Below are positions 14,041 through 55,103 of a DNA stretch of 64,000 bases, in pieces (the stretch's first letter is position 1; each line of letters begins with the position of its first letter). Origin of the DNA: a virus. The notes beneath the pieces were generated by a model, which ran no database searches, was not told the DNA's origin, and saw only the letters and a program-made list of their open reading frames with translations. The stretch lies in the IMG/VR virus record IMGVR_UViG_3300045412_000547; one strand, 5' to 3'. A program made the translations under genes and the position numbers.

Positions 14041-14048
14041 ATATATAT

Positions 14049-18450: not shown

Positions 18451-18454
18451 AATT

Positions 18455-18862: not shown

Positions 18863-18864
18863 AA

Positions 18865-19692: not shown

Positions 19693-19747
19693 TAAATATT
19701 TTATATTAAATTAGTAGTTTTTCAAATTTTTGTAAATAAGTAATCTT

Positions 19748-22529: not shown

Positions 22530-22543
22530 ATTAATATATTACA

Positions 22544-28567: not shown

Positions 28568-28568
28568 A

Positions 28569-35806: not shown

Positions 35807-35814
35807 ATTATTAT

Positions 35815-38715
35815 TTAACAGGGTATTTGTATAGTAAACACGGGCCCTGAGCCGCTTACTCTTACCCATCCAGTAGTTGGAACCACATAAGGAACAGTGG
35901 ACGGGTTAGTAAATACCGCTCCAACTATAGAGCTAAGCGCGGGGTTAACTTCTAATAATCTCCAGTTAGGAGACGCCCAATTATCATGTGTAATAACGTA
36001 ATTATTAAATGTTGTTGTTCTATAGAAAGGGTCGCCTCCGGTAGGAGGATATGTTAAGACATAGCAATCGTTTATATTAGAAGGAGCACCACCTAATAGT
36101 CTAATTTGAGAAGGACCAGAAGTGGGTGTTAATGTAACTGTAGGCGTTATAGTTGGTGTCTGTGTAGGGGTCTGCGTAGATATATTCGTAGTTGTAACAG
36201 AGGGTGTGGGAGATGAGGTAACTGTCTGTGAAGGTGTAATAGAAGGTGTAATAGTTTCGGTAGGTGTAACTGTTTCTGTTGGTGTGTTAGATGGCGTTCT
36301 CGTCGGTGTAGGTGTAAACGAAGTTGGGGTGTTTGTCGGGGTAATAGAGGGAGTAGATGTAATAACAAAATCTTCGCTTTTGTTATTATTAATTACCCCG
36401 TTTATACCAAAATTTTTAATTTCAAAGTTGCTACCGCATAAACCGGAGCTATAACTTAAACCACAATAAACTGCATCTGGTAAAGGTTTAGCATAATAAT
36501 TTTCTGGTAATGTAAAAGTTGCATAATTAAAATAATTTTCATAATTATATTTTTTAAGATCTATTACTACTGTTTTACCGAAATCAGTGAATCTAACTCT
36601 TGCTTTGTGAAATTCAGGTGTGGCATCACCTGTAATTTGTTGATATAGATTAAAAGGAACAGAATATGCTGATCCGTTTAAAGATTGAGATGTATAAATT
36701 AATGGCCAATAATAACAGTAAGGGCCTCTTATTGTTATTGAATTAGGTATACCCACGTCTCTACCTGGTACTATACCAAAACTCGATAATGCAAAGTTAC
36801 CTTTTAAATCAAACCCTATACCTATCAAGCCACCAGATATACCGTCAGATGTCATTTTTGCTGGTATGTATCCGGCATCATTAATCCATGCTGAAATTCC
36901 AGAAACAGCAGTATAGCCAAGCCCCGGACCCGGTCCACCTCCGCTTATAGTTGGTACGAAATTATTTACTAAGAAAACACAGAATCCCTCATCGCCTATT
37001 GGGTTAGCACCATAACAAGCATATTCAAACGAAATAGTTAAATCTGCTTTAGTGCTAAATGATTGCTGTAAGATAAATGAACCGGCTTTTCCGTTTATAG
37101 GCATTTGATAAAAATCAAAAGAGAATGGTGACGGTGTGGGACGTGGTGTCTGAGTCGGTGTTTTTGTAGGTGTCGATGTATTTGTAGGAGTGGGCGTCTC
37201 CGTATATCCAATAGTTTTTGTTGGAGTAGGTGTGGGTGTATTACTTCTTGTATTTGTTGGAGTATGAGATGGAGAAATCGTAAGGGTGGGTGTTACGGAG
37301 GGTGTGGCGGTCGGTGTAAGACCTGGTGTTACAGTATTAGTCGGTGTGATCGTAGCTGTGGGTGTAGGTGTAAAATTAACTGTACGTGTTGGTGTTGTCG
37401 TTGGTGTACTTGTAGTAGTAGATGTAGGTGTTTGTCCAGGAGTCCTAGTGGGCGTCGGTGTGACTGTTCTTGTAGGTGTTAAAGATATTGTTGTTGTAGG
37501 GGTAAGGGTTACTGTAGGAGTAGGTGTAAAAGATGGAGTAATCGTTGGTGTAGGGGTAATTGAAGCTGTTGGAGTGGGGGTAGGAACTTCAATAAACGAG
37601 TTTAAGGATAAAGAAAATAAATCGCCTCCTTGAATTTCCTGGTTTGTTAAAATGATTGTGTCTGTGATGGTGTCTGGTACTATAGTGAAAGATTGATACG
37701 TAGAATTATTTTTAAACCCTAGCTGCCCAAAATCATTTCTACCACATCCAGCTATTATATCACCGCCTACCGAATTAGGTGTAGATGAAACACCAGCAGT
37801 ATAGCTGTACCCTCCAAAAACCCTACTTAACCTTACTGAATTTGATAATACAGTCCATGAATTCTTTGGTGTTGTGTTCCCTAAACCTAGCTGCCCGTAT
37901 GTGTTGTTACCTGTAACCCAAGCTCGACCATTTGAGGAAAGAGCTATACTATACTCGGCCCCGGCGTGTATACCTCTATATTTACCGTCAATTCTTCTAA
38001 AAGTATATTGTATAGAAGGCGATGCCCCTATGCCTAGTTGACCGCTAGAATTATCACCAACTACATACAAATCATATTCTTGTGTTGTAGGGCTATTAAT
38101 ATTACCAGACAGTAATAAAGCATGTGTTAATCCGCATTTTATATTTGACCATACACCCGTAGTAGGTGTCCAAGATGTAAATTGAGTACCTGTATTTCCT
38201 AAGCCTAGTTGACCTTGAAGATTACTTCCTGCTACATACAAAACACCGTTATTACGTATTGCATATGAGAATGCACTGCCTGCTGCTATAGAAGTATATG
38301 TAAACCCACCATCATTAGTAGTATTAAAAAGAGTTCTACTTATTTTATCACCGCTACCTAATTGACCGTGGTTATTTCTACCAGTTCCATAAATTCTACC
38401 ATTTGTTAAATTAATTGCTAAAGAGTGATCTACACCGGCTCCAATACTTGAATATAAACCGGAAATTAGTTTAAAAGTTACTCTTTTAAAATTAGTTCCG
38501 TCTCCTAACTGTCCAAAAGAATTATTACCTGCAGCAGATAATACTCCTGTATTGCTCAGTAATAATGAATGAGCGCTTCCAGCTGCAACTTTAGTAAGAG
38601 AATTTAATGGAAAATAAGAGTCTTGTGATGTAAGTGAAAATAGTAACGAAGAATCCTCTAGTCCTAATTGACCATGTTGATTACCACCGTAACGAGAGAA
38701 AATATTAAGAGCCAT
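35815..38715 (-). CDS. RCC1-repeat + PT stalk + legume-lectin-like domain + PT stalk + small C-domain
   Basis: About seven GxNxxGQLG RCC1 repeats; two TPTPT tracts; GDEGFCVFL...GPGLGY...IGIGFD lectin-like motifs. Confidence 0.8.
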
Positions 38716-41700
38716 TAGTACACCCCAAATTCATAAGTTCCGTTTTTTATATTTAAATTACCAGGCCAGTTTAGCACGCTATGTGGTTTAAAATACGATG
38801 GTAAATTGTGTAATTCAAAATAAGAACTAGACAAACCAAAAGCAATATGAAGCATATTAGATGAAGGCATGTACATATTAGTAGATACATTATTTAAAAT
38901 TCCGTTTATATATCTATATTCATATTTAAAAATATAAGAAAAATCTGATGTATCTTTACCTATAAAAGTTAAAACAAAAGTATTATTATCTGTGTTAAAG
39001 GAAAATAGAGGTTTTTCAAAATAATTAATATTAATGTTGTGGTAATTTGAATTATTATTAATCCTTAGTGTTAAGTTACCGGAGGGTTCTGCAGAAACTA
39101 CACATAGATTGGTACTATCAGACATTAAGGTATAATTATTTTCAGGGAATATGTAATTAGTATATGCAGAGTTTGGATATTCATTAAATAATTTATTTTC
39201 TAAAAGACTATAAGAATAAATAGATGGTGTAACTGTTTTATAAATGGAGCCGCTTAAAACAGGATACAAATTAAAAGAAGCTACATAAAGTTTTTTTTCA
39301 TTTTCACTAAAAAACACTGTAGATGTATTTTCAAAATTTCTATTTCTACCTTTATATACTAAATTGCTAGTATTTGATACGTTACGCAATGTACCGCTAT
39401 TAAAATCAAAATTTATTTTTTCAAAAATTACATAATTTTCAGTTTCTAATAGCAATACATCATAATAAACGTCAAAATTTATTAATTTATTATTAATTTC
39501 ATTTACAACTTCATTATTATTTTTATCATTATAATATTTTATAAATAATGCACTCAGTGCTGATGATACTGGTTCAATAATTGTACTATTTGCGTTTCGA
39601 AAATAAAAATCGCCATAATTAATGAAGTTTGTTTGATATATACTTTGTTTTTGACTAATTGTTGTTATGTTTTGCAAATAAGTTGTTAGTCTTCCAGGTA
39701 CTCTGAGATTTATAAAATTGCTTCTTTCGGTATAGAGAGGCTCATTAAAAGATATGGGCCTACCACACGGAGATTCACCGTTTATTAATAAAAAAGACCC
39801 ATCCACGTTTGTTAAAGCAGATAATGGCGGTTTAAAAGTAAAATCTGCAGCAAAACCATACACTGGCCGGTAACCTGGCGCTGCTGGATTAGCCCCTCCA
39901 TCAATTAATTCACTGTAATAAACACTAGTTGCAGCAGGGTTAAAGCTAGGATTATCACTTGGATAATCTATTAATTTAGCAGATGAATTTGATACAAATG
40001 TATGTCCGTCCTTAAAATTACAATCAAATGTCTGTATTACAAATTCAGAACAAAATATTTCTGGTTGAAAAACATATGAAATTAAATTTTCAAACTCATT
40101 TTCTGGCAAATTATAAGAAGGTACCCCGTTATTATAGAAAAAAGTAGATAAAGGAGAATTTTCTGAGTAGTTACCAATATAATAATTAGTATAGCTATAT
40201 GGAACGTAATACCCTGTACCCGGCGGAATATTTGTAGTTGTTTTTAATGCAAATTCATATACAAAAGGATCAAATTGACCACCATTTACGATGGAACAAA
40301 ACCTTAATCCTTCTACATCTCTTGTACCGGCTGTTGTTGGTAAAGGCCGTAACGGTTCTGTAAATTTAAATAACCCGTAATTATTACCATATACATCCGA
40401 CTTAAATTGTACTAAATTCTTAAAAGTATTAATTAAAGTTTTTTGTCTTTGATAGATGGGAAATTTATCTGCCGGTACAAGTTTATAGATGTCTTCATTA
40501 GCCCATACATTTTTAAGGTGTGTTTTAAAAAAATCTTGAGGATCGGTTCGTCTATGAATACCGGAATCAGAATACTCTAGAGATTGATCTCGAGATTGGT
40601 AAGCACGAAATGTTTGAAGTTTATTATCTGTATATACATCACCAAATCTATACTGATTTGCGATATTAATCTTGTTAAAATAGTTATATTCTACAAATTT
40701 AAAGGGTGAATTAAACTCTTCAAACGTTGTACTTTCAACATTTCCATATTTTTCTGGATCAGGAAATATATAGACTGAATTAGAGGCTAAGTTATTTTTA
40801 TCAAAAAACGGTTTAAAATCAAAAGAAGTAAAAGTAGCTAAACCCAGCTTATCCGGCTTAAAAAATCCACCGATATGTTTAATTGAAGTATTACTTTCAT
40901 TAGCTACAGCTGCTACTGTAGGGTATCTTTTGTTTAGATAGTTGGCATAAGAATTTTTAGCTTTATATACAACACCAGAAAGAAAATTATTAATAGTTGA
41001 GCCTGTTGAAACATAATAAAAATCTGTACCAATATATTTTTCAATTTCTAATTCTTCATTATTTAGATTAAGATTTTCATAGGTTTCTGTGTTAAACGTA
41101 TTGATAAAATCTTTGTCTTTTAAATAATAAAATTGTTTAGAGGAAGAGACCGTAGGTGTTATTACGAAATTATTTGTTCCTAATTCCGTTAAGAAAAACG
41201 GATAGCTTGTCATAGCCTGAACTACACTTCTAGCAAAGTCTAATGTTATATAAGGGTCACTATTATAAACATTTAGATTGAAATATTCTTTTCTCTCACC
41301 AGACGGGTTATATGCTGTTAATGAAACATTCGGACTTATATCAAAATAAGAATTTGACGTATCATAAAGTTCTTCTACTTCTACAGAAATATTATTACGA
41401 ATATCAGACAGCGAAACATTTAAAGTCTTTATTATTTCGATTAAATCATCGGCTTCTAATGCTTTAGAAATTTCATTGTAAACTCCTTTTTTAATACCAA
41501 AATTTGATCCGCGTAAATTATTTTTAACTGAAGCAGTTTTAACGTCGTCCCTTAGAGAGCTATAGTAAATACAAATTTCTTTAATTTTTTTAGCGTAAAA
41601 AGGTATAACTGTTGCAATTTCTCTGGGATTATTAAAGTCTACATTTGAAATAAACCGTTTTTCGTCTGGAGTAATGTAGTTTAAGGTTATTTCATTTAAT

Positions 41701-41945
41701 AAATTTACATATAAATCCTTAAGAGAAACTTTATTAGCCTGATCTAAGTTATTTTTATATGTATACCATCTGGTTAAATAGTTTTTATATTTTCCAAGAA
41801 ATATTTCAGGTGTTGTAAAAACTTCATTACTATACGTTAACCATTGTTTAAAAGTAAAAGGATTGTCTTTATCCAAGCCGTTTTTATTGCCAGAAATTAC
41901 CGATACGTCTAGTGTATTATTCTGTAGCTCAAGCATGTTTGGCAT
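38715..41945 (-). CDS. Large virion structural protein (baseplate-associated)
   Basis: 1076 aa inside the tail module; TAAATA-N5-ATG upstream; no recognised catalytic motif. Confidence 0.55.
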
Positions 41946-41984: not shown

Positions 41985-43253
41985 TTATACAGATCTGCCT
42001 ACTTGAAAGTACTTTCTTCCGGATAGCGTCAAAACAGGTGCTTTTGAAGTATATACCAAAATATTATTTTCGGATGATACTGTTGGCATCTTTAAATCCC
42101 AGGGCACTATATCTAAATCTCTTACAATACTTGTAATTCTACACCCTATAGAATATGAATCGTCTGGAGGGCCAGCAAAAAGCAAACCAATTGTTTTCCA
42201 TGCAGATGCAGAAGGTACATTCGAGCTTAGTAATGCAAACATCGCGGAACCCGAGTCACCGCCTCCACCGGGTGAAACATTACCCTGTACATAGAAACTG
42301 TCACTAAACCAGCTTCTATATCCACTATATAGTCCAACATTTGCATAGCCAAGTTGATATACAGATAATTTACAAAAATTACTAAACCCAGGAAAACCTA
42401 TAGGGCCTTTTGTTCTGCCTGATCTAAAAATAGGTGATCGGTAATTAAGAGATGTTGGATCTATTAGAGAATCAATTTCGTGATCTGATGCAAATTTATA
42501 AGGTGGCATCTCACTAAAATTTACCACCCTTCCACTGCTAAGAGGGTCTATTAAATTATAACTAGAAAGTTGTAAAATAGCTGCATCTACAGATGTGCCT
42601 TGGATATAACCATATGGGTCTAGAGAAGGAGAAATATTACCTATGAGTACTGGTCTCTTACATTTTCCTATATAATCAATACTTGAATCTGTATTTCCAT
42701 AACTATTACTGGAAGGTGAACCTGGTTGTCTACCACTTAATTCAAGCGTGTTAATTTTCCCTAAATTATTAGCTGTTGTAGAGCTCACTGCTGTAGATAC
42801 CTGAGATGCTGCATAAACATGGTTATTGCTTAAAGCTACAACCTGCCCGTCGGATTTATCTCTAACGATTAAACCAAGAGTAGCATCTGATGAGTTTATA
42901 TTTATACTACTTATGCCTCCCACAAGAGGTCTATATCTTATCCTATTACTTTTAACAGGTTCAACGTTTTCACTATTATTATGGCATGCAGTGGTTGCTA
43001 TTGTTTGGTGTAAAATTGTTTCCTGAACGTCCGTTAATACTATTTCTGTTTCAATTTCTAAATTCTGAGGAATAATCATATTTGAAGGTAATTGTGAAAG
43101 GGGTAACTTTTCTTTTACCAGTAAAATTAAACACATCTGTTCTGTAGATTGACCGTTTGTAATCTTAGGACCTACAAGAGCCCCTTGTACGTTATAGGGT
43201 AATTCTTTAAATTTACCTTCTCTGATCCATTGTAATGTTTTATATATATTCAT
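41985..43253 (-). CDS. Trypsin-like S1 serine protease, Nal1-like
   Basis: LSNNHV, VDAA and GGDSGS triad motifs; RPLVGGIS, ATLG, SGRT; Nal1-type N-domain (LVKEKLP...IP...TDVQE). Confidence 0.85.
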   Translation of the reverse strand: MNIYKTLQWIREGKFKELPYNVQGALVGPKITNGQSTEQMCLILLVKEKLPLSQLPSNMIIPQNLEIETEIVLTDVQETILHQTIATTACHNNSENVEPVKSNRIRYRPLVGGISSININSSDATLGLIVRDKSDGQVVALSNNHVYAASQVSTAVSSTTANNLGKINTLELSGRQPGSPSSNSYGNTDSSIDYIGKCKRPVLIGNISPSLDPYGYIQGTSVDAAILQLSSYNLIDPLSSGRVVNFSEMPPYKFASDHEIDSLIDPTSLNYRSPIFRSGRTKGPIGFPGFSNFCKLSVYQLGYANVGLYSGYRSWFSDSFYVQGNVSPGGGGDSGSAMFALLSSNVPSASAWKTIGLLFAGPPDDSYSIGCRITSIVRDLDIVPWDLKMPTVSSENNILVYTSKAPVLTLSGRKYFQVGRSV

Positions 43254-46200
43254 TAGTAATTTAATATATTTATTGTGCCTATCATATTGCTATGCACTGT
43301 GCACTGATAAAAAATAACATTAGGTGTACCGCTTGTAGGAGTGAATAATACTCTACCACTTGTTTTACCATTAACAATATCGTTATTATAAGTACCGTTT
43401 ACAGGATTTGTTGTATCACCACTTGCGTTTCTCAGAGCAAACGGATGACCTCCTAGATTAAGTATAAAATCATAATTTGTTCCACGGTAACAAGTAAGTG
43501 TGGGATTATTAGTTCCAAATTGTGAAATGTTATAGTATTGTCCAGGAGCAGAAACAGTTAAAGGCACAAAACTCGCAATATAAGTACTATTCACAATAGG
43601 TAATGTAACCGTTGGCGTGGGTGTGGGTGTAACCGGTAAACCAGATGCTGTGGGTGTAGGTGTAATATTGATGCAGGCCGAGCTGGTGGCCGAAGTGGGC
43701 TTACCTCCAAGAGTGCCTGTAAACCCAGAGCTAGTCGGGCAGTAGTAAATCGTCAGGTTAACGTGGGTGCCAGAGAAAACATTATTCCCCACCGTGGGAG
43801 CATTGCCCTGCATGGTGATGCTGGTAAGGCTGGTGCAGCCTTGGAACGCAGCATACCCAATGCTGGTCACGCTGTTGGGGATGGTGATGCTGGCAAGGCT
43901 GGTGCAACTAGCGAACACATAACCCCCAATGCTGGTCACACCGCTACCGATGGTGACGCTGGTAAGGCTGGAGCAATTTTCGAACGTCTGAGACCCAATG
44001 CTTCTCACGCCGCTACCGATGGTGACGCTGGCGAGGCCGGTGCAACTTTGGAACGCATAATCCCCAATGCTGGTCACGCTGTCGGGGATGATGATGCTGG
44101 TAAGGCCGGTACAATGAAAGAACGCAAAAATCCCAATGCTGGTCACGCTGGTGGGGATGGTGATGCTGGAAAAGCTGCAACCAGCGAACGCATTATTCCC
44201 AATGCTTCTCACGCCGCTACCGATGGTGACGCTGGCAAGGCTATTGCAACTAGAGAACGCATAATCCCCTATGCTGGTCACGCTGTCGGGGATGGTGATG
44301 CTGGCAAGGCTGCGGCAATTATAGAACGCATAAGTCCCAATGCTGGTCACGCTGTTGGGAATGGTGATGCTGGCAAGGCTGATGCAATTATAGAACACCC
44401 AACCCCCAATGCTAGTCACGCTGTCGGGGATGGTGACACTGGCAAGGCTGAAGCAACCAGAGAACGCTTCATTCCCAATGCTGGTCACATATAAACCAAT
44501 TTTTACAGCGGTTAAAGTTTTGTTGACGTTCCAGCTAGACTTGTACAACACCGTATCACTGCTGGTGCTGGTGGTTCCATCACTGTAATAAAAAATAGTC
44601 ACAGATGATGTACGGGTGGGGGTTAATGTTGGTGTGCTAGTAGGAGTTGGCGTGGGTGTGGGTGTAACCGGTAAACCAGATGCTGTGGGTGTAGGTGTAA
44701 TATTGATGCAGGCCGAGCTGGTGGCCGAAGTGGGCTTACCTCCAAGAGTGCCTGTAAACCCAGAGCTAGTCGGGCAGTAGTAAATCGTCAGGTTAACGTG
44801 GGTGTTATAGAAAACATTATTCCCCACCGTGGGAGCATTGCCCTGCATGGTGATGCTGGTAAGGCTGGAGCAGCCTTGGAACGCACCATACCCAATGCTG
44901 GTCACGCTGTTGGGGATGGTGATGCTGGCAAGGCTGGTGCAACTAACGAACGCATAACCCCCAATGCTGGTCACGCCGCTACCGATGGTGACGCTGGTAA
45001 GGCTGGAGCAACCAGTGAACGCACTATTCCCAATGCTGGTCACGCCGCTACCGATGGTGACGCTGGTAAGGCTGGTGCAATTATTGAACGCAATATCCCC
45101 AATGCTGGTCACGCTGTCGGGGATGGTGATGCTGGTAAGGCTGGAGCAATATTCGAACGCATGATGCCCAATGCTGGTCACGCTGTTGGGGATGGTGATG
45201 CTGGAAAGGCTGGTGCAATAAGAGAACGCCTCCGACCCAATGCTAGTCACGCTGTTGGGGATGGTGATGCTGACAAGGCTGAAGCAACCAGAGAACGCTT
45301 CATTCCCAATGCTGGTCACATATAAACCAATTTTTACAGCGGTTAAAGTTTTGTTGACGTTCCAGCTAGACTTGTACAACACCGTATCACTGCTGGTGCT
45401 GGTGGTTCCATCACTGTAATAGAAAATAGTCACAGATGATGTACGGGTTGGTGTAGGTGTTATTGTAGGTGTAGGTGTTATGGTGGGTGTAGGTGTAATA
45501 TTGATGCAGGCTGAGTCGTCGGGCACGGTGGGCTTACCTCCAAGAGTGTCTGTAAACCCAGAGCTAGTCGGGCAGTAGTAAATCGTCAGGTTAACGTGGG
45601 TGCTTGAGAAAGCGCCATCCCCCACCGTGGGGGCATTCCCCTGCATGGTGATGCTAGTAAGGCTAGTGCAATTAAAGAACGCATAATCCCCAATGCTGGT
45701 CACGCTGTTGGGGATGGTGACGCTGGCAAGGCTGGTGCAATTAAAGAACGCAAAATTCCCAATGCTGGTCACGCTGTCGGGGATGGTGACGCTGGCAAGG
45801 CTGGTGCAACCATAGAACGCACTATACCCAATGCTGGTCACGCTGTTGGGGATGGTGATGCTGGTAAGGCTGGAGCAATTTCTGAACGCACCATACCCAA
45901 GGCTGGTCACATATAAACCAATTTCTACAGCGGTTAAAGTTTTGTTGATGTTCCTGCTGGAATCTAACAACACCGTATCACTGCTGGTGCTGGTGGTTCC
46001 ATCACTGTAATAGAAAATAGTCACAGATGATGTACGGGTGGGGGTTAATGTTGGTGTGCTAGTAGGAGTTGGCGTGGGTGTTGGTGTAGCAGGATTGCCC
46101 GATAATGTTGGCGTGGGTGTAGTAGGATTGCCCGATAATGTTGGCGTGGGTGTAGTAGGATTGCCCGATAATGTAACCGAAGGAGTTGGTGTGGGTGTAG

Positions 46201-46492
46201 TAGGATTGCCCGATAATGTAACCGAAGGAGTTGGTGTGGGTGAGGGCAATGGGTTATTTAGCGTTATATTATTTTTAGCCACAACTATATATCCTGAATT
46301 ACTAATAAAATGGGTAAATTGCGGGGCAATATCGAATGGTCTGTAGGTTCTTAGGACGTATTGAGATGGGGCTACTATTTGTACCGCACATAAAGAAGCG
46401 CTAATCGAGCTTAATGCTATAGGTACTTCAAAAGGATATTGAAATACGGAGTATTTACCAAAAGAATCGCCAGGCAAAATAATCTGATTCAT
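43253..46492 (-). CDS. BspA-type (LRR_5) triple-module protein on PT stalks with C-terminal cupredoxin-like domain
   Basis: 21 LTSITIPNSVTSIGxxAFxxC repeats in three capped modules; C-terminal NPTLT..RG..Y.F...GHPF...YQCTVHSNMIG. Confidence 0.9.
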   Translation of the reverse strand: MNQIILPGDSFGKYSVFQYPFEVPIALSSISASLCAVQIVAPSQYVLRTYRPFDIAPQFTHFISNSGYIVVAKNNITLNNPLPSPTPTPSVTLSGNPTTPTPTPSVTLSGNPTTPTPTLSGNPTTPTPTLSGNPATPTPTPTPTSTPTLTPTRTSSVTIFYYSDGTTSTSSDTVLLDSSRNINKTLTAVEIGLYVTSLGYGAFRNCSSLTSITIPNSVTSIGYSAFYGCTSLASVTIPDSVTSIGNFAFFNCTSLASVTIPNSVTSIGDYAFFNCTSLTSITMQGNAPTVGDGAFSSTHVNLTIYYCPTSSGFTDTLGGKPTVPDDSACINITPTPTITPTPTITPTPTRTSSVTIFYYSDGTTSTSSDTVLYKSSWNVNKTLTAVKIGLYVTSIGNEAFSGCFSLVSITIPNSVTSIGSEAFSYCTSLSSITIPNSVTSIGHHAFEYCSSLTSITIPDSVTSIGDIAFNNCTSLTSVTIGSGVTSIGNSAFTGCSSLTSVTIGSGVTSIGGYAFVSCTSLASITIPNSVTSIGYGAFQGCSSLTSITMQGNAPTVGNNVFYNTHVNLTIYYCPTSSGFTGTLGGKPTSATSSACINITPTPTASGLPVTPTPTPTPTSTPTLTPTRTSSVTIFYYSDGTTSTSSDTVLYKSSWNVNKTLTAVKIGLYVTSIGNEAFSGCFSLASVTIPDSVTSIGGWVFYNCISLASITIPNSVTSIGTYAFYNCRSLASITIPDSVTSIGDYAFSSCNSLASVTIGSGVRSIGNNAFAGCSFSSITIPTSVTSIGIFAFFHCTGLTSIIIPDSVTSIGDYAFQSCTGLASVTIGSGVRSIGSQTFENCSSLTSVTIGSGVTSIGGYVFASCTSLASITIPNSVTSIGYAAFQGCTSLTSITMQGNAPTVGNNVFSGTHVNLTIYYCPTSSGFTGTLGGKPTSATSSACINITPTPTASGLPVTPTPTPTVTLPIVNSTYIASFVPLTVSAPGQYYNISQFGTNNPTLTCYRGTNYDFILNLGGHPFALRNASGDTTNPVNGTYNNDIVNGKTSGRVLFTPTSGTPNVIFYQCTVHSNMIGTINILNY
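43600..46080 (-). repeat. Three near-identical module duplications, each containing 69-bp LRR tandem repeats (4, 7 and 10 units)
   Basis: Caps such as caccgtatcactgctggtgctggtggttccatcactgtaat and aaacccagagctagtcgggcagtagtaaatcgtcaggttaacgtgggtg each occur three times. Confidence 0.95.
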
Positions 46493-46511
46493 ATGTTATT
46501 ATTTATTTTTT

Positions 46512-48086
46512 TTAAGATAAATTTACAACTCCATTTACAAAAATACCTGTAAATTGATAATTATTTCCTGGAGTACTATTTAATTTATATCCAAAAGATG
46601 TACCTAATCTATCTGTTGTAAAATTAATAAAACTTCTAAAACTACCGCTTAAATTTACAGTCATAGTAACAAAATCAATCGAACTACCACCATTATTAAA
46701 ATAAACAGTATCAGCATAGTTGTAGGGTGAAACGGAATTAATTTCTATCTTTTGACCCGGGCTAACATTTTCTGGACCTACTAAAGAAAATAGAAAGTTA
46801 GTACTAGAAGTTAATGACGGTGTCACACTGGGCGTTGCTGTTGTTGTAGGAGTAACCGGTAAACCAGATGCTGTGGGTGTAGTGCCCGGAATTCTTGTAG
46901 GTGTAAGCGTTTGGGTAGGGGTAGGGGTAGGTGTTGGTGTTGTTGTAGGAGTAACCGGTAAACCAGATGCTGTGGGTGTTGGTGTAGCAGGATTGCCCGA
47001 TAATGTAACCGAAGGAGTTGGCGTGGGTGTAGCAGGATTGCCCGATAATGTAACCGAAGGAGTTGGCGTGGGTGTAGCAGGATTGCCCGATAATGTTGGC
47101 GTGGTGGGAGGGGTAGGAGTAGGGGTAGTCGGTAAACTAGATGCTGTTGATGTCGCTGTAGGTGTAATGCCCGGAATTCTTGTAGGTGTAAGTGTCTGAG
47201 TAGGTGTTTGTGTAGGGGTGGGTGTTGCTCCGGTATTAAAATATACGTTTCCTGCTATAAATGTACTGAAAAATTGTGGGTATGATTTATTAAACCCTTG
47301 TAGGCTATAACCAAACGGCTGACTAATTCTTGTTGATTCAAAGTCAACCTGAATTCTAGCTCTACCATCTACCCATATACGCATGGGGGGAATAGCAGGC
47401 AACCCTCCAGTGCTTACCCCATTAAAACAAAAACTATCTAAATAGTTTTCAGCTGAAAATAAAGAAATATCTTCAACAGTATTATTACCTTCAACACAAT
47501 ATGAAAATGGGTTCGGTGTTGTCGAAGGAGTAATTGAAGGAGTAATTGATGGAGTGCTTGTTTGAGATGAGGTTGGAGTATTGGTAGGTGAAGGAGTTAG
47601 TGTAGAAGTAGCGATAGGAGTAGGTGAATTTGAAGGTGTAGGTGTTTGTGTTGGTGTTTCTGATCGTGTTTCTGATGGTGTTTCTGATGGTGTGACTCCT
47701 ATAGTTAGTGTAGGGGTGCAGGTATTCGTGATTGTAGGTGTATTTGTAGGAGTTTCTGTTTGTGTTGGCGTTGCTGTTAAAGTATTGGAAGGCGTAGGTG
47801 ATTTGGTAACTGAAGGTGTAGGTGATTTGGTAACTGAAGGTGTAGGTGTATTTGTAGCTGTTTGAGAAGGCGTTACTGATGCGGTTGGTGTGTTCGAGGG
47901 AGTTATAGAAGGAGTAGGTGAATTCGTTGGGGTTGATGTTACAGGTATACCTAGATCCGCAGCGATGCCCACAAATCCTTCTTGCATAATTTTTTCAAAA
48001 CTCGTGCGACTTAATCGCTCTCTACGTAGACGATCGTTTGTACTTAAGTTGTCTAAAACCCGCGGATCTTTTTTACGCACAGCCAT
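46512..48086 (-). CDS. Thr/Pro-rich stalk protein with two copies of an about 90-aa beta domain
   Basis: Basic N-terminus, then PT tract, domain 1 (..NYLDSFCFNG..QPFGY..), PT tract, domain 2 (..NYADTVYFNNG..TSFGY..). Confidence 0.7.
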   Translation of the reverse strand: MAVRKKDPRVLDNLSTNDRLRRERLSRTSFEKIMQEGFVGIAADLGIPVTSTPTNSPTPSITPSNTPTASVTPSQTATNTPTPSVTKSPTPSVTKSPTPSNTLTATPTQTETPTNTPTITNTCTPTLTIGVTPSETPSETRSETPTQTPTPSNSPTPIATSTLTPSPTNTPTSSQTSTPSITPSITPSTTPNPFSYCVEGNNTVEDISLFSAENYLDSFCFNGVSTGGLPAIPPMRIWVDGRARIQVDFESTRISQPFGYSLQGFNKSYPQFFSTFIAGNVYFNTGATPTPTQTPTQTLTPTRIPGITPTATSTASSLPTTPTPTPPTTPTLSGNPATPTPTPSVTLSGNPATPTPTPSVTLSGNPATPTPTASGLPVTPTTTPTPTPTPTQTLTPTRIPGTTPTASGLPVTPTTTATPSVTPSLTSSTNFLFSLVGPENVSPGQKIEINSVSPYNYADTVYFNNGGSSIDFVTMTVNLSGSFRSFINFTTDRLGTSFGYKLNSTPGNNYQFTGIFVNGVVNLS

Positions 48087-48223: not shown

Positions 48224-49333
48224 TTATGTTATAACGAAATTACCACCTATATCATCGTATCCAACGCCCTGTTGCGTGCCTGGTGTTTGAGTAACAGATG
48301 GTGTTATAGAGGGCGTTATAGTATTTGAAGGGGTAATAGAGGGCGTTATAGTATTTGAAGGGGTAATAGAGGGCGTTATAGTATTTGAAGGGGTAATAGA
48401 GGGCGTTATAGTTCTTGTAACTGAAGGTGTAACTGTGCTTGTAGAAGTACGGGTTACTGTATTTGTCGGTGTTGCTAAAGGTGTCTTGGTAGCTGTAGGT
48501 GTTGGTGATAAGCCAGGGGTTGCAGTATTTGTAGGAGCAGGAGTATTAGTCGGCGTTGTTTGAGGTGTAGGTGTATTAGAAGGGGTTGCTAAAGGCGTTG
48601 ATTGAGGCGTCGTTGTTGGTGTTGCTGTAGGAGTTCTTGTAGGTGCTAAAGTTGGAACAGGAGTATTTGTTGGTGTAGGTGATAAGTTCGGTATAAGCGT
48701 GGTTGTAGGTGTAGATGTGGCCGTCGACGTGGCTGTAGGTGTAGATGTGGCCGTCGACGTGGCTGTAGGTGTAGATGTGGCTGTAGGTGTAGATGTGGCT
48801 GTCGACGTGGCTGTAGGTGTAGATGTGTTTATTGGTGTGGCTGTAGGTGTAGGTGTGTTTGTTGGAGTTGCAGTCGACGTGGCTGTAGGTGTTAAATCTG
48901 GTGTAGAAGTTGCTTGAGGTGTACCTGTATTTGTTGGTGTTTTAGTTATAGTTGGTGTAACAGAGCTTGTTATATTAGGAGATACGTATGGTGTACCTGT
49001 TTGAGTAGGAGTAAGAGTAGGAGTAGCTAATGACGTTTTAGTGGGCGTTTGTATAGCGGTTCCAGTTGGCGTATTAGTTATTGTAAGGGTAAGGGTTGGA
49101 GTTGGTGTCAATAACGCAGTTGGGGTTAGTGAAGGACCAGAGGAAGGCGTTGCTGTAGGAGTCGGCGTGGATGTTATTGAAGCAGTTGGTGTTTGTTTGG
49201 GTTCTATTGCTTGATCTCGAGCTACAGGGTCTTTACCTAATACAGACTTATATAAAGGAGAAAGTCTATCTAATTTATTTTTTCTTTTAAAGTTATTATT
49301 ATTAATAACTTCTTCAATAGGTAATATGGCCAT
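48224..49333 (-). CDS. Almost entirely mucin-like Thr/Pro-rich protein
   Basis: About 300 aa of TPT/ATST repeats between a 45-aa basic head and a 15-aa tail; includes 30-bp tandem repeats at about 48305-48411 and 48705-48890. Confidence 0.75.
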
Positions 49334-49336: not shown

Positions 49337-52300
49337 TTACTCCAATACATTTAATCCTTTTGAAAGATAAAAAGAAAACAGATTTTCAACTATTCCCTTA
49401 TCTGATATCCAGTTTGTATATGAACTATTAAATGGAGATAAAGTAGTAAGACCGTCTTTCCAATTTATTATGTTATTGTAAAAAGTATTTTCCGGCTTAT
49501 CTATAAATTCAAAAAATTTATAGTAGTTTCCTATATAAGATCCAGATATTGTATCAGATGCTACTAATCCCCATCCCCAATCATTAGAATAAGATGAAAG
49601 AGGTACTGTGCTTAAAAGTGTAAATCTAGATTCATTTACTAGATTGTATGTGTCGGAAAATATTTCATATGCAATAATAGGTACCCCTATTGAAATTTTA
49701 CTAGTAAGAACAGATAATTCAGTACCGCGATTTACAGCATAATAAGAATTATTTACAGATCCTTTATCATAAAAATTTAAATTAAATTTATTTTGATCGC
49801 CCCATAAAATATTATGTTTTAATGAAAGTAAATTAACTAATCTTTTTAGGTTAGGAGGAAACGGATAGTTATAATCTTCAAATTGAATCCCTAATTCGTA
49901 GCAAAACGATATTAGCGAATCAACATTACATTTGTCAATATCACCATTATTATCAATAAAATTAGCTATTTTTTCATAAACAGTCTTACCTAGTGTATAC
50001 GGCATAGAACTTACATTACCTACTATTGTTCCTAAAAACGTATCTAAAAAATTGTTATAGCTAAGCATAAAATCTTGAAAAGTAATCTGCTTATAGTATT
50101 CCGTCATATCAAAATTTTCATTTTCTTTTGTAAGTTCATACTTACCATTGGAAGAATATATATTAAAGACTGCAGAAGTACCTGTAATGGTTCTAACTAA
50201 GGATTCAGAATACATGTATTTGTTAATCCATCTAAATCCGTTCCAATCGCCGTATGCTTGATATCTTTTTTCCTCCCATGCAGAAATAGGATAAGATGTA
50301 TCATCCAGCATACCCGGTAATAATGAAGCACTGTTTATCGGGTATGGCGGGTAAAACGCATCCACATAATAAATTCTTCCATCAATGTTATTAATAGCCC
50401 ATATATACTGAGATGTATCACATATAATACCGTCAATGCTTTGAATATGACTTGTGTTATTAGCAGACCCTACCTTAACATCTGTACGTTGGGCTGTATA
50501 TGCATCAATACGTGAAATAGTATCCCGATCATGTGAAACCCATGCATTCTGTCCACCATCTACACAAATATTACCAATTAATCTAAAGCCGGACAACGGA
50601 TATTGAGGAATTAAATTGCCGTTAAAATCATATTTAAATAAATAATCGTTCCTAGATGATAAACTAAATGCACTTATTGTAGAATTGTTTAAGCAGGTTA
50701 CCCAAACCATTTTATTTCTATCTACGCAAACTTCTACCGGTGAGTATAATGGTACGAACGGAATTACTTTTATTGTACTGCCGTATGTATTGTATTTTAT
50801 TAGTAGAGAGCTTATCGGGTGCGTATAAGCAACCCAAAGATTATTATCAAAATCAGTATCTACAGAAGAAGGTAGAAGAGTATTTTCACCAGCAAAACCG
50901 CTAAGCTGAGGTAAATTATAATCAGAACTTAAATGATAAACTAAATTTTGATAATGCGGGTATGCTATATTTGTTATGACACCCGACAGCGCATGTACTT
51001 TAACTGTTGAAATACTGTCAAACAAGGATACCCATATATCTGAATTTTTATCTAACGCAATACTATTAGGAGCAGCGCTACTTAATACCGGTGATCTATA
51101 ATTCAAATAAGCTACATTACCACTTGAATCTATAATAGTCTTAAAAGAAGTAAAGTCGAAAGAAGATAAAATTTCACCGGTGTTAGCATTTAATTTAAGA
51201 AGAGTATCTGCTACACCGTCTGCTACCCATGGGCGGTAGTCTTCTTCTACACCAGCTCCGGAAATTGCACATGCAATAGCGTATTGATTTCTGTTTTCAT
51301 CAACAAATATATTTGTTTTTTGTGATGAGAGAAATATACCTACGGTACCTAAGCAAGAACTTATAATTTGCTGTCTAAAAAACCTTCCAATATATCTAGA
51401 TTGTGGCTGTGCGATCCAAGAGATAAGAGTATCTTTAGGAAAATTAACGGGGTCTTCTACTAATACGGAACCCGTAAGCACTACATTTTCTACTGAGTAA
51501 GGGCTTACTAGATATCCTTTGAAAAAGCCTCCAATAGTGTGCGGTGTCTCTTCATTAAAATCTTCATAAAAAGATATGCCTGTTAAAGGTGTATATGTTT
51601 CATTACTAAAAACCTTAGAATATTTGCATAAACCAAATTTTAAATCGTAGTAACCAGTAGCCGTTCTTGTATCCGTTAAAGATGATGATAGTGGTGGGTA
51701 TGTTTTTGTTGTATAGTTTTCGTTATCTTTAAATTTTATAACGAAAGGTATTTCTGAATTTTGCCAGCTATGGTATGGTATGTCGAACGAAGTTGCTGAT
51801 AAATGACCTTCGCCGTCAATACCGTTAGTAGTAATAGAAAGACGTTGAGCAGGGTTATGTCTAACCTTAATAATAGGCATAGTAGTATAATTAATATTTT
51901 GAAACCCGCCCGGTGGGTAAAGAACAAAATCAAAAATATTACTGTATGTTGAATAAAAATCTTTAAACTTACTATTATCAATGGACGCAAAAATAATTAT
52001 TGGGTTTTCTCTTGATGTGTAATTTTTTACTTTATCATCAACGTAGTGTGCTTCGCATTGTCCAGTTGTACCACAAAAGAAGGACCCAGGATCATTTTTG
52101 TTACACAAAACTAATTGCTTATTATCATTTATTCTTGCATAAATTAAAACATTAGTAGTGCTTAACTTATCAACAACAACATACTGTTCAGTGTCGCCTA
52201 TTTTAAATTTACCGTAAAATCTTGAAAGAAGTCTAAGATGTGACCATTTATCGCTGTAATACCTACTAACATTAAGATAATCACCAGAAGCACCAGAAGC

Positions 52301-52771
52301 ATAAAAATTTATTGTATAGCCTTCTGCACTTAATGCAGGCCAAGATTGCCAGCTAGAATACCGGCGCACTACTAATGGTTCAATTAGTTTACTAGCCGGT
52401 ACGTCATAAATTAACCTTTTAAAAACTTCAAATCTTATTTCATCATGAACAAAATCTCTTATAGTGATAATCGGCTGATAAGTATTATCAAAAGCGTTAC
52501 CCGCAGCATCGAAAACTGTTAAATTCGGTTTATATTTACCAGGCCATTTGTAAATGTGAATAGCTGTTAAATCTGAACTGTAAGTACCGTCACCAAAATC
52601 CCATCTAATTTTTTTATTGGAAATATTGTTTTCTGTAGAAAGTAGCGGAGATGTAGTAAAGTCCGGTACAAAAGTTAACGGTGTTATATCAATAGTATAA
52701 GAAGATAAGCTACTACGACCGGAATAATCTCTTACATCGTAAAAGAGATATGTAAAGTTTGTAGTTGCCAT
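49337..52771 (-). CDS. Baseplate protein with PKD domain and beta-propeller (gp7-position wedge component)
   Basis: WDFGDG...HIYKWPGKY..LTV (PKD); DxxxxxWV propeller repeats; follows gp6. Confidence 0.65.
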   Translation of the reverse strand: MATTNFTYLFYDVRDYSGRSSLSSYTIDITPLTFVPDFTTSPLLSTENNISNKKIRWDFGDGTYSSDLTAIHIYKWPGKYKPNLTVFDAAGNAFDNTYQPIITIRDFVHDEIRFEVFKRLIYDVPASKLIEPLVVRRYSSWQSWPALSAEGYTINFYASGASGDYLNVSRYYSDKWSHLRLLSRFYGKFKIGDTEQYVVVDKLSTTNVLIYARINDNKQLVLCNKNDPGSFFCGTTGQCEAHYVDDKVKNYTSRENPIIIFASIDNSKFKDFYSTYSNIFDFVLYPPGGFQNINYTTMPIIKVRHNPAQRLSITTNGIDGEGHLSATSFDIPYHSWQNSEIPFVIKFKDNENYTTKTYPPLSSSLTDTRTATGYYDLKFGLCKYSKVFSNETYTPLTGISFYEDFNEETPHTIGGFFKGYLVSPYSVENVVLTGSVLVEDPVNFPKDTLISWIAQPQSRYIGRFFRQQIISSCLGTVGIFLSSQKTNIFVDENRNQYAIACAISGAGVEEDYRPWVADGVADTLLKLNANTGEILSSFDFTSFKTIIDSSGNVAYLNYRSPVLSSAAPNSIALDKNSDIWVSLFDSISTVKVHALSGVITNIAYPHYQNLVYHLSSDYNLPQLSGFAGENTLLPSSVDTDFDNNLWVAYTHPISSLLIKYNTYGSTIKVIPFVPLYSPVEVCVDRNKMVWVTCLNNSTISAFSLSSRNDYLFKYDFNGNLIPQYPLSGFRLIGNICVDGGQNAWVSHDRDTISRIDAYTAQRTDVKVGSANNTSHIQSIDGIICDTSQYIWAINNIDGRIYYVDAFYPPYPINSASLLPGMLDDTSYPISAWEEKRYQAYGDWNGFRWINKYMYSESLVRTITGTSAVFNIYSSNGKYELTKENENFDMTEYYKQITFQDFMLSYNNFLDTFLGTIVGNVSSMPYTLGKTVYEKIANFIDNNGDIDKCNVDSLISFCYELGIQFEDYNYPFPPNLKRLVNLLSLKHNILWGDQNKFNLNFYDKGSVNNSYYAVNRGTELSVLTSKISIGVPIIAYEIFSDTYNLVNESRFTLLSTVPLSSYSNDWGWGLVASDTISGSYIGNYYKFFEFIDKPENTFYNNIINWKDGLTTLSPFNSSYTNWISDKGIVENLFSFYLSKGLNVLE

Positions 52772-54624
52772 CAGTACTCCCTTACAAGAGACTGTATAGA
52801 AGGTGTAACAACAACAATTTTATTTACAAAATCTATAACATTGTTTATGTAAGGGAATTTATAATAGGGAAGCTGGGTATCCTGTGAAATAATATCTATA
52901 TCATCATATGGATACACGGGATTATATATCACCATACTTACACCAGGAACTTGATATGTGTTTCCATTATAAAGTGTCTTTGTTTTAATATCATCAACAC
53001 CTTCTAAAGCTAATATTTCATTCGTTATGTCTGTAAAAGAAATTAGTTTTCCTAAATTATCTGAAGTAGTTGAAAAGTAATTTTTAAAAATATCGTAAAT
53101 TTGAAGTTTTAGTTCTTCAGGGTTTCTTTTGGCTGTTATGCTTCTGGTAATTTGCAAAGTAGCGTTGGTTGTTACATCGGGACTTAAAACAACATTAGGT
53201 ATATTAACTGCAAAATCTAAACCTACATAAATAGGATCTATAATTACGGGCTCGCAGGTAGTAATTTTTATATCTAAAAGATCATTGAGAATGATCTGTT
53301 TTTGAGCTGAATTAAGATAATTTACCCTCGTAGTAAGAGATGTTAATTTGTTGAGTCTCGGTACAGCGTAAATATATACATTATTAAAATTACAAGAATC
53401 AGAAAATTTTACTTGATTAAAGAGCACACGAGAATTTAAATTAGGTTTATCTACTCCCAAATCAAAATAATATTTTAAATGCCCGGAAGTATAATCCCAA
53501 TTATTAACAACTTTAGAAGAACAAATTATATTACCGTAATTTTTATCTATAAACGTTTTAAAGTCATTACTAGTTATTAATCTATACTGCGATTTAAATG
53601 TATTGAGAGCATTATTTTTAATGTTTTGAACGCTTTCACGTAAAACATACTGTGTAGAAGGATTGCTGTTCGTAAAAGTAATAAAAGTAGAATTATTATT
53701 ATCAATAAGATTTATACCGGAGGGAATAATATTAGATTTTATTTGATCAAACCTTAGTGTTGAGTAGAAAAACAATCTGCTATTATTAAGTTGATTTGAA
53801 CCTATCTCTCCTTTAGAGCCATTAGTTCTCAAATAATATATAGCAACTTCATCGTTTTCGTTAAGCTTTTTACCGGTAACATTATTACCAAATTTAATTT
53901 CGTATCTTTCATTTTCATTCATTCTTATTTCATATGTATTACTATTGCTTTTTTCAAGAAAAAGTGACTGTGTAGGGGACCATTGCTTCCAAGTAGGGTT
54001 ATTAGAATTATTTTCCTTTACATAAACATGAATATTAAAGTGATCTATTTCGATATTATTGCCATTTGAATCTACTATAGTAATCGTTAATTGTTCGAAA
54101 GGTTCACCTGTTGCAATATATGAAGGATATTCAGTCCATGTACCTTGATACAGTAAATTATTTTCCTCTAAATCAGTTAATCTTTCAAGTTCATTAGTTA
54201 ATTTTGTAAAGGTAATATCTTTATTAAAAGTATAGTTTATACCATTAACAGTGAAATAAGAATATCTAGCTATAGTATATGTACCCTGTTGAAGTGAAGT
54301 TGAACCTGTTGCTTCAAACGAAAGAATAGGTGTTTGATACCCTATGGGGTTGTAATTTAAAATTTTTACTATTTTATTAATATTGTCATATATTTCAGAA
54401 GTTGAAAAGTTACTTTCTGATGCAGTCCTATTTAAATAAAATAAAAGTACGTGATATGCGTAAGAAACTATATCGATAATTGAGTTTAAGTTACTTCCTT
54501 CATACCTTTGATCTGAAAATACATTAGATGTATTCAGTCGTTGAATAATAAGATTTTTAAGGCTAGTAGCATCGAATGCTACATAGCCGTCTGTAGGTAA
54601 TGAGTAATCACTAAATTCTGACAT
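52771..54624 (-). CDS. Baseplate wedge subunit, T4 gp6-like
   Basis: FD..SLK......L....FSD..YEGSNL..IIDIVSY, LNYNP, YEIKFGN..GK, YYLRTNG and QYRLITSNDF. Confidence 0.88.
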   Translation of the reverse strand: MSEFSDYSLPTDGYVAFDATSLKNLIIQRLNTSNVFSDQRYEGSNLNSIIDIVSYAYHVLLFYLNRTASESNFSTSEIYDNINKIVKILNYNPIGYQTPILSFEATGSTSLQQGTYTIARYSYFTVNGINYTFNKDITFTKLTNELERLTDLEENNLLYQGTWTEYPSYIATGEPFEQLTITIVDSNGNNIEIDHFNIHVYVKENNSNNPTWKQWSPTQSLFLEKSNSNTYEIRMNENERYEIKFGNNVTGKKLNENDEVAIYYLRTNGSKGEIGSNQLNNSRLFFYSTLRFDQIKSNIIPSGINLIDNNNSTFITFTNSNPSTQYVLRESVQNIKNNALNTFKSQYRLITSNDFKTFIDKNYGNIICSSKVVNNWDYTSGHLKYYFDLGVDKPNLNSRVLFNQVKFSDSCNFNNVYIYAVPRLNKLTSLTTRVNYLNSAQKQIILNDLLDIKITTCEPVIIDPIYVGLDFAVNIPNVVLSPDVTTNATLQITRSITAKRNPEELKLQIYDIFKNYFSTTSDNLGKLISFTDITNEILALEGVDDIKTKTLYNGNTYQVPGVSMVIYNPVYPYDDIDIISQDTQLPYYKFPYINNVIDFVNKIVVVTPSIQSLVREY

Positions 54625-54626: not shown

Positions 54627-55103
54627 TTAGTTAAATATAAACCCCGAATTACTTAATGTGCCTGGTATAGTAATGCCTGCTATTTTCATACGTGGAGCTG
54701 TAATAGTAAGCAAAATATAATACTGTTGATTTTCTTCATCAGGAATAACCTTGAGTGATTCTATTGAAACTCTATCTATTTCATATATTCCAATACCCCT
54801 TCGTATTTCCTGACCTATACTCTCAGCTACATTCATTGATATGGGTTCAAACAAGTAACGCGATAGACCTATCCCAAAATCTGGATTTAAGAGCTTTTGA
54901 CCTGGAAATGTATTAAAAAGATTAAAAAGTGACGATTTTATGGCACCTAAATCATATAATGCTTTTAAATCTTTAATTTCATCCTTTTTTAATAATTGAT
55001 TGTTTTTTGTAAATTGATATTCTAAATCTAGCTTTATATCGCTGTAAGTAAAGTTCTTAAATGTTTTTGTCGGTGCTTTAACAGATAGTATCTTGATAGC
55101 CAT
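54627..55103 (-). CDS. Baseplate wedge / sheath initiator, T4 gp25-like
   Basis: YSDIKLD...AIKSSLFNLFNT.PGQK..NPDFG..L..YLFEP. Confidence 0.9.
   Translation of the reverse strand: MAIKILSVKAPTKTFKNFTYSDIKLDLEYQFTKNNQLLKKDEIKDLKALYDLGAIKSSLFNLFNTFPGQKLLNPDFGIGLSRYLFEPISMNVAESIGQEIRRGIGIYEIDRVSIESLKVIPDEENQQYYILLTITAPRMKIAGITIPGTLSNSGFIFN

Follow-up and report, generated by a model that had tools for sequence, protein, structure and literature searches.

A leucine-rich repeat protein in the tail module of a T4-like phage, probably built from bacterial repeat units that carry NNT codons at their variable positions

Introduction

We analysed a 64,000-nucleotide stretch of viral DNA (IMG/VR record IMGVR_UViG_3300045412_000547; hereafter the window), which is part of a larger phage genome, and focused on one of its genes, whose 1079-residue product (P0121) contains 21 leucine-rich repeat (LRR) units with four highly variable codons each. 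We propose, with a probability of roughly 0.7, that P0121 is a phage adhesin-like protein made from bacterial LRR units, which were duplicated and then diversified at the four variable positions by ordinary substitution under selection. Most likely, P0121 is an LRR_5 adhesin-like appendage of a known kind, with an inherited codon signature that is common to many bacterial relatives.

The proposed course of events is as follows. The 23-residue units would come from a DNA-level repeat lineage that also builds secreted LRR_5 surface proteins of bacteria, and an AT-rich T4-like phage would have acquired them as part of one of its late structural proteins. The founder unit would have carried NAT at the four variable residues (D/N-Y ... 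Y-N in IG-xx-AF-xx-C). As the units multiplied by unit and block duplication, their third bases (C in the scaffold, T at the variable positions) would have been copied along and been slow to change. Replacements at the variable positions would arise through point substitutions, mostly at codon positions 1 and 2 with some changes of T to A or G at position 3 (giving E, Q, R and W), and would persist because diversifying selection acts on a stripe of the solenoid that binds ligand. Duplication and selection of this kind would mimic the NNT output of adenine mutagenesis on an AAT template, with no retroelement needed. An initial annotation of the window had described the codon pattern and headlined it as a possible mark of a diversity-generating retroelement (DGR). 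The pattern itself is confirmed here, and of its two interpretations the one that invokes selection and repeat dynamics is upheld while the retroelement is not.

Results

NNT codons at four positions of a G/C-ending scaffold

Tandem Repeats Finder identified three arrays with a 69-nt period in the LRR gene, from which we extracted 21 units of 23 residues each (one has 22), all starting with [IL]G..[AVT]F..C. The units follow the scaffold already given in the initial annotation, ATT GGG X X GCG TTC X X TGC x AGC CTT ACC AGC ATC ACC ATC CCC AAC AGC GTG ACC AGC, in which X stands for unit codons 3, 4, 7 and 8 (84 codons over the 21 units) and x for unit codon 10. A manual count had put 70 of the 84 X codons as ending in T, and our recount matched this figure exactly; the other third bases at X are A (8), G (4) and C (2). 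Scaffold third bases are distributed very differently, with 266 C, 70 G, 59 T and 3 A, such that the ratio of T to C is 70:2 at X and 59:266 in the scaffold (Fisher's exact test, p = 5e-39). Given the amino acids encoded at X and the codon usage of the 45 other open reading frames (ORFs) of the window, 47 T-endings are expected at X (standard deviation 3.9), and the observed 70 was reached in 0 of 200,000 codon-usage simulations. The fraction of scaffold third positions occupied by G or C (GC3) is 336/399 (84%), compared to the 77 (19%) expected from window usage. The Fisher test and the simulations therefore indicate that both halves of the signature, NNT at X and a G/C-ending scaffold, are real and far beyond chance. 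The x codon, which had been described as mostly NNC, ends in C in 18 of 20 units.

The consensus X codons of the array are AAT TAT .. TAT AAT, and 79 of the 84 X codons, counted from the codon table, are either NAT or one substitution away from NAT. Twelve of the 16 possible AAT>NNT products occur among the NNT codons, with no stop codon. Fourteen X codons lack the final T: 12 of these end in A or G, nearly all of which change the amino acid (to E, Q, R or W), and two end in a synonymous C. Proline, leucine and cysteine are absent from X, and arginine is found once among the 84 codons.

P0121 contains three capped LRR modules

P0121 matches the Pfam LRR_5 family (BspA-type, PF13306) over five stretches with 557 bits (E = 4.4e-170), against a gathering cut-off of 27.7, and its tandem units satisfy the pattern L..I.IP.SV..IG..AF..C. 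The protein begins with an N-terminal domain and a Pro/Thr-rich linker, continues with three LRR modules that have short Pro/Thr linkers between them, and finishes with a C-terminal domain. All three modules share one N-cap (..SSVTIFYYSDG..) and one C-cap (..TMQGNAPTVG.. ..IYYCPTSSGF..), which enclose 4, 7 and 10 units, respectively. An AlphaFold model of module 3 (mean pLDDT 80) shows a regular solenoid to which each unit contributes one main strand, and a Foldseek search with this model returned 4GT6 (E = 4.5e-12), 4FS7 and 4FD0 (TM score 0.70), all of which are solved structures of BspA-type LRR proteins. Alignment of the motifs, using the class scheme of conserved and variable LRR segments in PMC9525666, suggests that the X positions sit in the variable segment (IGxxAFxxC), outside the conserved LxxLxLxxNxL strand.

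Protein searches with the whole of P0121 and with module 2 were dominated by generic LRR_5 proteins (8000 scored; 423,959 representatives). The N-terminal domain had no Pfam match and no homologue in a word-indexed protein search of its own length band, and the N-cap had no homologue in a protein search within the length band covered. An exact-sequence lookup of P0121 matched no contig, and exact DNA patterns from the gene and its scaffold were found in none of the viral or metagenome contigs. Two open frames run antisense through the LRR arrays (43763-44494 and 44798-45325, plus strand; 243 and 175 amino acids) and encode GDGDAGKAGA-type repeats. These frames are open because the 69-nt unit has no stops in that frame, and nothing indicates that they are genes.

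The repeat DNA resembles that of an Opitutales surface-protein gene

The closest relative that we found is a gene for a 1074-residue secreted LRR_5 protein (locus L023, positions 182-3406) in the metagenome-assembled genome (MAG) of Opitutales bacterium UBA5694 (DIHO01000016.1). The consensus unit of this gene is identical to that of the window at 53 of 57 scaffold nucleotides and at 17 of 19 third positions. Scaffolds of single units from the two arrays are on average 0.825 identical to each other, nearly the 0.874 seen within the window array. The best DNA match of module 2 is to this Opitutales gene: with the variable codons included, blastn aligned them at 79.7% identity over 473 nt, and a further comparison gave 78-81%. 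The X codons of the bacterial gene show the same preference, with 57 of 64 being NNT and a consensus of GAT GAT .. TAT AAT, and matches in the Opitutales genome were found in this gene and on three other contigs. Judging from these sequence comparisons, the Opitutales gene is likely a relative of the donor lineage.

Composition within the LRR gene follows its modular structure. The caps and units have a GC3 of 0.48-0.72, whereas the linkers and both end domains have values of 0.13-0.32; the 45 other ORFs of the window range from 0.15 to 0.30. This foreign GC3 of the caps and units, together with the Opitutales match, leads us to infer that the repeat DNA was imported from a moderate-GC bacterium, in which case the transfer would have run from bacterium to phage. 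Chimeric assembly was rejected as an explanation, as a single ORF runs in frame through the three G/C-rich modules and the phage-type linkers interspersed with them.

A search for related loci with an alignment of the three modules recovered six viral loci and two distant metagenome loci, and the same kind of search with the whole protein, variable peptides included, found nothing. One viral contig of 26% GC (L001; IMGVR_UViG_3300001487_000135), which is probably from a relative of the source phage, encodes a 229-residue LRR protein with the same N-cap as P0121. This LRR gene adjoins glycosyltransferase-like and radical-SAM-like genes that resemble a glycosylation cluster of the window (5408-25022).

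We considered the possibility that the phage lineage has long carried the array and received no recent import, with frequent GC-biased conversion between units keeping the scaffold uniform and G/C-rich and selection shielding the AT-biased X codons. Related AT-rich phage contigs do carry LRR modules with the same N-cap, and the high similarity of the units and the different unit numbers of the modules speak for ongoing recombination. The T-ending X codons also look native to the phage, in contrast to the scaffold. However, conversion inside the phage could not yield the scaffold and third-position identities with a chromosomal gene of Opitutales, and it leaves unexplained why many bacteria show the same contrast between X and scaffold (see below). 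In addition, the LRR genes of the phage relatives have an ordinary GC3 of 0.21-0.25, and scaffold variants in P0121 change from C to T rather than from T to C. We therefore regard long residence as unlikely.

Paralogous modules differ by single substitutions

Modules 2 and 3 have near-identical caps, and 10 of 12 X codons are kept in three paralogous unit pairs. The differences within these pairs are few and mostly non-synonymous, and consist of single substitutions that include C>T, T>C, G>C and T>A. Relative to module 2, module 3 contains an insertion of three units, such that the birth and death of units is directly visible. Retrohoming should rewrite all adenines of a template tract at once, unlike the single changes that separate these modules. 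Across the scaffold, minority variants comprise 16 C>T changes and one T>C change, an excess of the kind that a sequence decaying in an AT-rich genome should show.

We calculated Nei-Gojobori proportions of synonymous (pS) and non-synonymous (pN) differences, which are rough estimates here because recombination and saturation distort them among paralogous repeats. The scaffold has a pS of 0.08-0.11, and the X codons have a pS of 0.16 and a pN of 0.59. Third positions at X change as slowly as those of the scaffold, and replacement differences at X are near saturation. Together, the module comparison and these proportions support the alternative offered by the initial annotation, diversifying selection combined with repeat dynamics, with selection as the presumed cause of the variation at X. 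To this reading we add that the NNT state appears to be inherited from a bacterial repeat lineage and that the G/C-rich scaffold is foreign to the phage.

Neutral drift of unconstrained X positions, for which neither positive selection nor binding is needed, was also considered. It would agree with the finding that X positions are the most variable columns of the family everywhere (2.0-2.2 bits within arrays) and with the unreliability of pN/pS among repeats. Yet pN at X exceeds pS at X as well as scaffold pS, and the third-base changes at X are 12 to A or G and two to C, even though synonymous T>C changes should accumulate freely. Moreover, P, L and C are missing and R is nearly so, which indicates that the positions are filtered. 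Drift therefore seems improbable as the source of this variation.

Bacterial LRR_5 arrays carry the same signature

We collected 80 LRR_5 loci from contigs that represent one genome per species (Firmicutes, Bacteroidota, Verrucomicrobiota, Spirochaetes and others) in addition to two earlier loci, and tested the 81 bacterial arrays that have at least six units (loci L011-L092). In the first bacterial homologue (L011), the ratio of T to C is 88:4 at X and 230:189 in the scaffold. Overall, T/(T+C) is higher at X than in the scaffold in 63 of the 81 arrays (Wilcoxon p = 8e-9). Taken singly, 27 arrays, which come from several phyla, have a significant T excess at X (p < 1e-3), and none has a significant difference in the opposite direction. 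Strong examples include L013, L023, L047, L055 and L026.

When X codons are pooled, the T fraction is about 0.65 in every codon box, compared to 0.40-0.57 in the scaffold and the rest of the genes. Endings in A or G are depleted at X in four-fold boxes; for GGN, the fractions at X are 0.50 for T and 0.11 for A, versus 0.26 and 0.25 in the scaffold. This pooled pattern fits third bases that were carried over from NAY codons. The excess is limited to the four X columns, and other variable columns, such as codon 10, are without it. The contrast between X and scaffold rises with DNA similarity to the window array (rho 0.75), a correlation with some circularity, since codons held in common add to the blast score. 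We also searched five genomes with a strong signature for RVT_1, the family of reverse transcriptases (RTs). Three of these genomes, including that of the Opitutales bacterium, had no match and two had RTs on other contigs only, though all are MAGs, in which the absence of an RT is no proof.

Selection for translational accuracy, which would favour C-ending codons at conserved residues and be relaxed at X, was rejected as the main cause of the signature, as the other variable columns have no T excess. It is also contradicted by the GC3 near 0.2 of the phage's other conserved genes.

A targeted process other than a DGR could, in principle, act on the LRR_5 array lineage in bacteria and phages and rewrite the first two bases of X codons with the third one fixed. 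Such a process would account for an X-specific T excess that recurs in several phyla, is never reversed and is limited to four columns, and the X third positions of L011 appear by eye to be steadier than the two-fold positions of its scaffold. However, no candidate machinery was seen, and the modest pooled effect fits carry-over from NAY codons. The contrast also tracks DNA-level relatedness, and the arrays are therefore not independent. Finally, recent paralogues differ by single substitutions only. A targeted process is very unlikely on these grounds. We would give no more credence to the bolder claims that NNT-locked X codons mark an undescribed form of codon rewriting without a nearby DGR, or that they encode a code of repeat-variable residues like that of transcription activator-like effectors (TALEs). 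The NNT-locked codons on a frozen scaffold are common to the phage protein and to bacterial surface proteins of several phyla.

The variation is not adenine-specific

The initial annotation attributed the X codons to DGR-type mutagenesis of template adenines. A DGR located elsewhere in the phage genome, with an RT and a template that carries AAT at X, would rewrite the units by adenine-specific mutagenic retrohoming. The stop-free set of NNT codons at X is in keeping with such a mechanism, the gene lies in the tail module, given in PMC10743442 as the usual site of phage DGR targets, and the window covers 64 kb of a larger genome. As previously noted from the sequence, no RT or template is found in this window: ORFs of at least 150 amino acids had no match to RVT_1 or to an RT family of PHROG, and when the gene was masked and the window searched with the LRR region by blastn (word size 7, E 10) and by tblastn, the matches were confined to Pro/Thr-linker DNA, with no unit-like copy outside the gene. 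The window spans about -20/+17.5 kb around the LRR gene. In the DGR detection pipeline of PMC8144416, one of the two repeats must lie no more than 1 kb from the RT, and the second no more than 20 kb away.

That pipeline also calls for at least 75% of differences to fall at template adenines. Here, adenine specificity was gauged by proxies that compare scaffold A with X cells, in place of a template alignment. The initial annotation had pointed out that many scaffold variants fall at adenines, and there is indeed an enrichment, with changes in 26 of 202 cells of A-columns and in 43 of 815 cells of other columns (odds ratio 2.65, p = 4e-4). Of the 26 changes at adenines, however, 25 are A>G transitions at first codon positions, which yield T/A, I/V, N/D and S/G swaps, and nine scaffold A-columns vary in at most one unit, six of them never. 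At positions 1 and 2 of the X codons, 57% of bases are other than A, and the scaffold rate of 26/202 differs strongly from this value (binomial p = 2e-39). Thus, the aligned units show no mutagenesis of scaffold adenines. If the template had been mutagenised at adenines, then every invariant scaffold A would be a template A and would have been mutagenised too. The invariant serine is encoded by AGC in 75 of 83 cases, an adenine-bearing choice that a DGR-adapted scaffold would be expected to avoid. Furthermore, 14 of the 84 X codons are altered at T, although scaffold T-columns are changed in only 2 of 194 cells. The excess variation therefore tracks the codon and not adenines.

The arrangement of the variable codons also differs from that of a DGR target. 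Paralogous units keep most of their X codons, and the variable codons are spread over 2.1 kb, 21 units and three modules of the solenoid rather than lying in one C-terminal variable region (VR). P0121 lacks a single 3' VR in a C-type lectin or Ig-like fold; its C-terminal domain is distinct and non-variable. LRR targets are nowhere mentioned in two large DGR surveys (PMC5758913, PMC8144416), one of which gives AAC, not AAT, as the exceptionally common template codon. The signature also occurs in bacterial genomes that have no RVT_1 match. Together, these results do not support the DGR interpretation of the LRR array, and a DGR elsewhere in the phage genome is the most remote of the explanations considered.

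The LRR gene lies among baseplate and tail genes

The source phage is T4-like, with a GC content near 0.3. Genes for gp25 (54627-55103) and gp6 (52771-54624) are located upstream of the LRR gene on the same strand, within a run of large tail genes, and neighbouring large tail-type genes encode PKD, RCC1, Laminin_G_3 and Mtd_N/Peptidase_S74 domains. The C-terminal domain of P0121 has no Pfam match, but tblastn returned 257 cyanophage records with 34-41% identity and E-values down to 1e-9. The matched proteins are annotated as the gp9 baseplate wedge/tail-fibre connector or as tail fibres, and the homology is at the level of this domain only. Gene order, C-terminal domain homology and a TAAATA box before the gene (Table 1) therefore point to a late, virion-associated baseplate appendage. 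P0121 would accordingly be a part of the virion, most likely as a multivalent adhesin or receptor-binding baseplate appendage with a presumptive role in binding.

Table 1. Features of the LRR gene and its immediate surroundings, in window coordinates
Feature	Coordinates	Strand	Basis
Whole gene; mosaic, putative late structural protein with three BspA-type LRR modules	43253..46492	-	ORF, LRR_5 match
TAAATA box, ending 7 nt before the ATG; possible T4-late-type promoter, as read from sequence alone	46500..46505	-	
N-terminal domain, aa 1-80; phage-like codon usage, GC3 0.28, no family	46253..46492	-	composition
Pro/Thr-rich linker 1, aa 81-151; GC3 0.32, tandem 33/45-nt repeats	46040..46252	-	
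LRR module 1, aa 152-333; N-cap, 4 units, C-cap; GC3 0.48-0.70	45494..46039	-	
Pro/Thr linker 2, aa 334-348; GC3 0.13	45449..45493	-	
LRR module 2, aa 349-598; N-cap, 7 units, C-cap; GC3 0.50-0.72	44699..45448	-	
Pro/Thr linker 3, aa 599-625; GC3 0.30	44618..44698	-	
LRR module 3, aa 626-943; N-cap, 10 units, C-cap; recent paralogue of module 2	43664..44617	-	
Pro/Thr linker 4, aa 944-962; GC3 0.32	43607..43663	-	
C-terminal domain, aa 963-1079 (117 aa); GC3 0.18	43253..43606	-	tblastn to cyanomyovirus proteins
Protease-like gene; its ATG overlaps the LRR gene TAA by one base (TAATG)	41985..43253	-	PHROG protease family, E = 3e-16

The DNA of linker 3 is 88% identical over 60 nt to a linker (46927-46986) of the neighbouring gene 46512-48086, and weaker linker matches were seen in 1079-3490, 35815-38715 and 48224-49333. 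The Pro/Thr linkers may serve as recombination joints for domain shuffling. Within the C-terminal domain, a C-x2-H-x2-M motif (FYQCTVHSNM) follows GGHPF and recalls a type-1 copper site.

Two adjacent fibre-like genes (26822-28567 and 28569-29249, minus strand) start with Mtd_N, and the first of these ends in a Peptidase_S74 chaperone. Mtd_N is the N-terminal domain of the DGR target of phage BPP-1, and the vicinity of these genes (26822-29249) showed neither a C-type lectin VR nor an RT or template. The tail module on the minus strand (30893-41945 and 49337-52771) encodes large proteins with varied binding-type domains (RCC1 propeller, Laminin_G_3, PKD), as well as two proteins of more than 1000 residues without any family.

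Discussion

Our analysis favours the import of bacterial LRR units into a phage structural protein, followed by duplication and by selection at the X positions. Several observations weigh against this account. For independent codons, native codon usage would give a less extreme ratio of T to C at X than the 70:2 observed (47 T-endings expected), and the account therefore depends on non-independence of the codons, that is, on inheritance from a founder. It is not fully explained why the founder would have had T-ending X codons on a C-ending scaffold when variable columns of the codon-10 type have no T excess. The third positions at X in L011, which by eye appear steadier than the two-fold scaffold positions, are not predicted by pure neutral inheritance. 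The pN/pS comparison is only a rough guide for repeats of this kind, and the absence of an RT and a template pertains to the 64-kb window rather than to the whole phage genome. Lastly, the N-cap is common to the AT-rich phage relatives L001 and L003, whose LRR genes have the low GC3 cited above, and is not shared by the Opitutales gene. The import may therefore have comprised either whole modules or units alone.

P0121 resembles the BspA-type and TpLRR-class proteins (4GT6, 4FS7, 4FD0, PcpA 4CP6 and TpLRR 6MLX) in its 23-residue unit with LxxIxIPxSV and IGxxAFxxC motifs, its strong match to the family's hidden Markov model, its predicted solenoid and the position of its most variable columns. 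Unlike BspA-type proteins, it is encoded in a phage baseplate/tail module without a signal peptide, and it has three capped modules on Pro/Thr linkers, phage-specific end domains and foreign codons. The cyanomyovirus gp9 and tail-fibre-annotated proteins share with P0121 a setting in a T4-like baseplate gene run and the C-terminal 100 or so residues, but they have nothing beyond this domain in common with it and no LRR modules were seen in them.

Repeats with a few hypervariable positions are also known from the tandem LRR loci of Flavobacterium psychrophilum (Altae-Tran et al. 2020, PMC10392669), which have units of about 22 residues. Modelling places the hypervariable residues of these proteins on one side of the solenoid, and the loci change through unit recombination and rearrangement with no retroelement. 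The F. psychrophilum arrays consist of separate genes with secretion signals, whereas the phage has one gene with three internal modules, and the codon-level NNT signature of the phage array is not described in PMC10392669.

Similarities to DGR systems such as that of Bordetella phage BPP-1 and its target Mtd are limited to a tail-associated protein that binds a ligand, presumably so for P0121, and to variation in a few stop-free NNY codons. The phage array differs in having no RT or template in the window, in variation that is not adenine-specific, and in its fold, which is LRR where a DGR target would be C-type lectin or Ig-like. The NNT codons at X extend over 21 repeats and 2.1 kb, in contrast to a single C-terminal VR and to the AAC template codon of one survey.

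The repeats of TALEs, with their repeat-variable diresidues, and the LRR cassettes of lamprey variable lymphocyte receptors (VLRs) are near-identical repeats in which a few variable positions are thought to set binding specificity, and both evolve by repeat duplication and shuffling. TALEs and VLRs are also cited in PMC10392669. Unlike these systems, the phage array provides no evidence of a code in which one repeat corresponds to one ligand unit, or of somatic cassette assembly, and its X positions would belong, from the motif alignment, to the variable segment rather than to the canonical concave sheet.

These results indicate that a fixed third base combined with variable first and second bases is insufficient to call a DGR. 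Young repeats that descend from NAT codons and turn over their amino acids rapidly look the same, as is the case for many bacterial LRR_5 arrays. Across the family, the excess of T at precisely four positions of the repeat is a modest observation in molecular evolution, but one that can be tested. For the phage, P0121 would be an example of the borrowing of bacterial adhesin parts through recombination at Pro/Thr linkers, and a modular adhesin made from bacterial surface-protein repeats would be useful for predicting its host or substrate.

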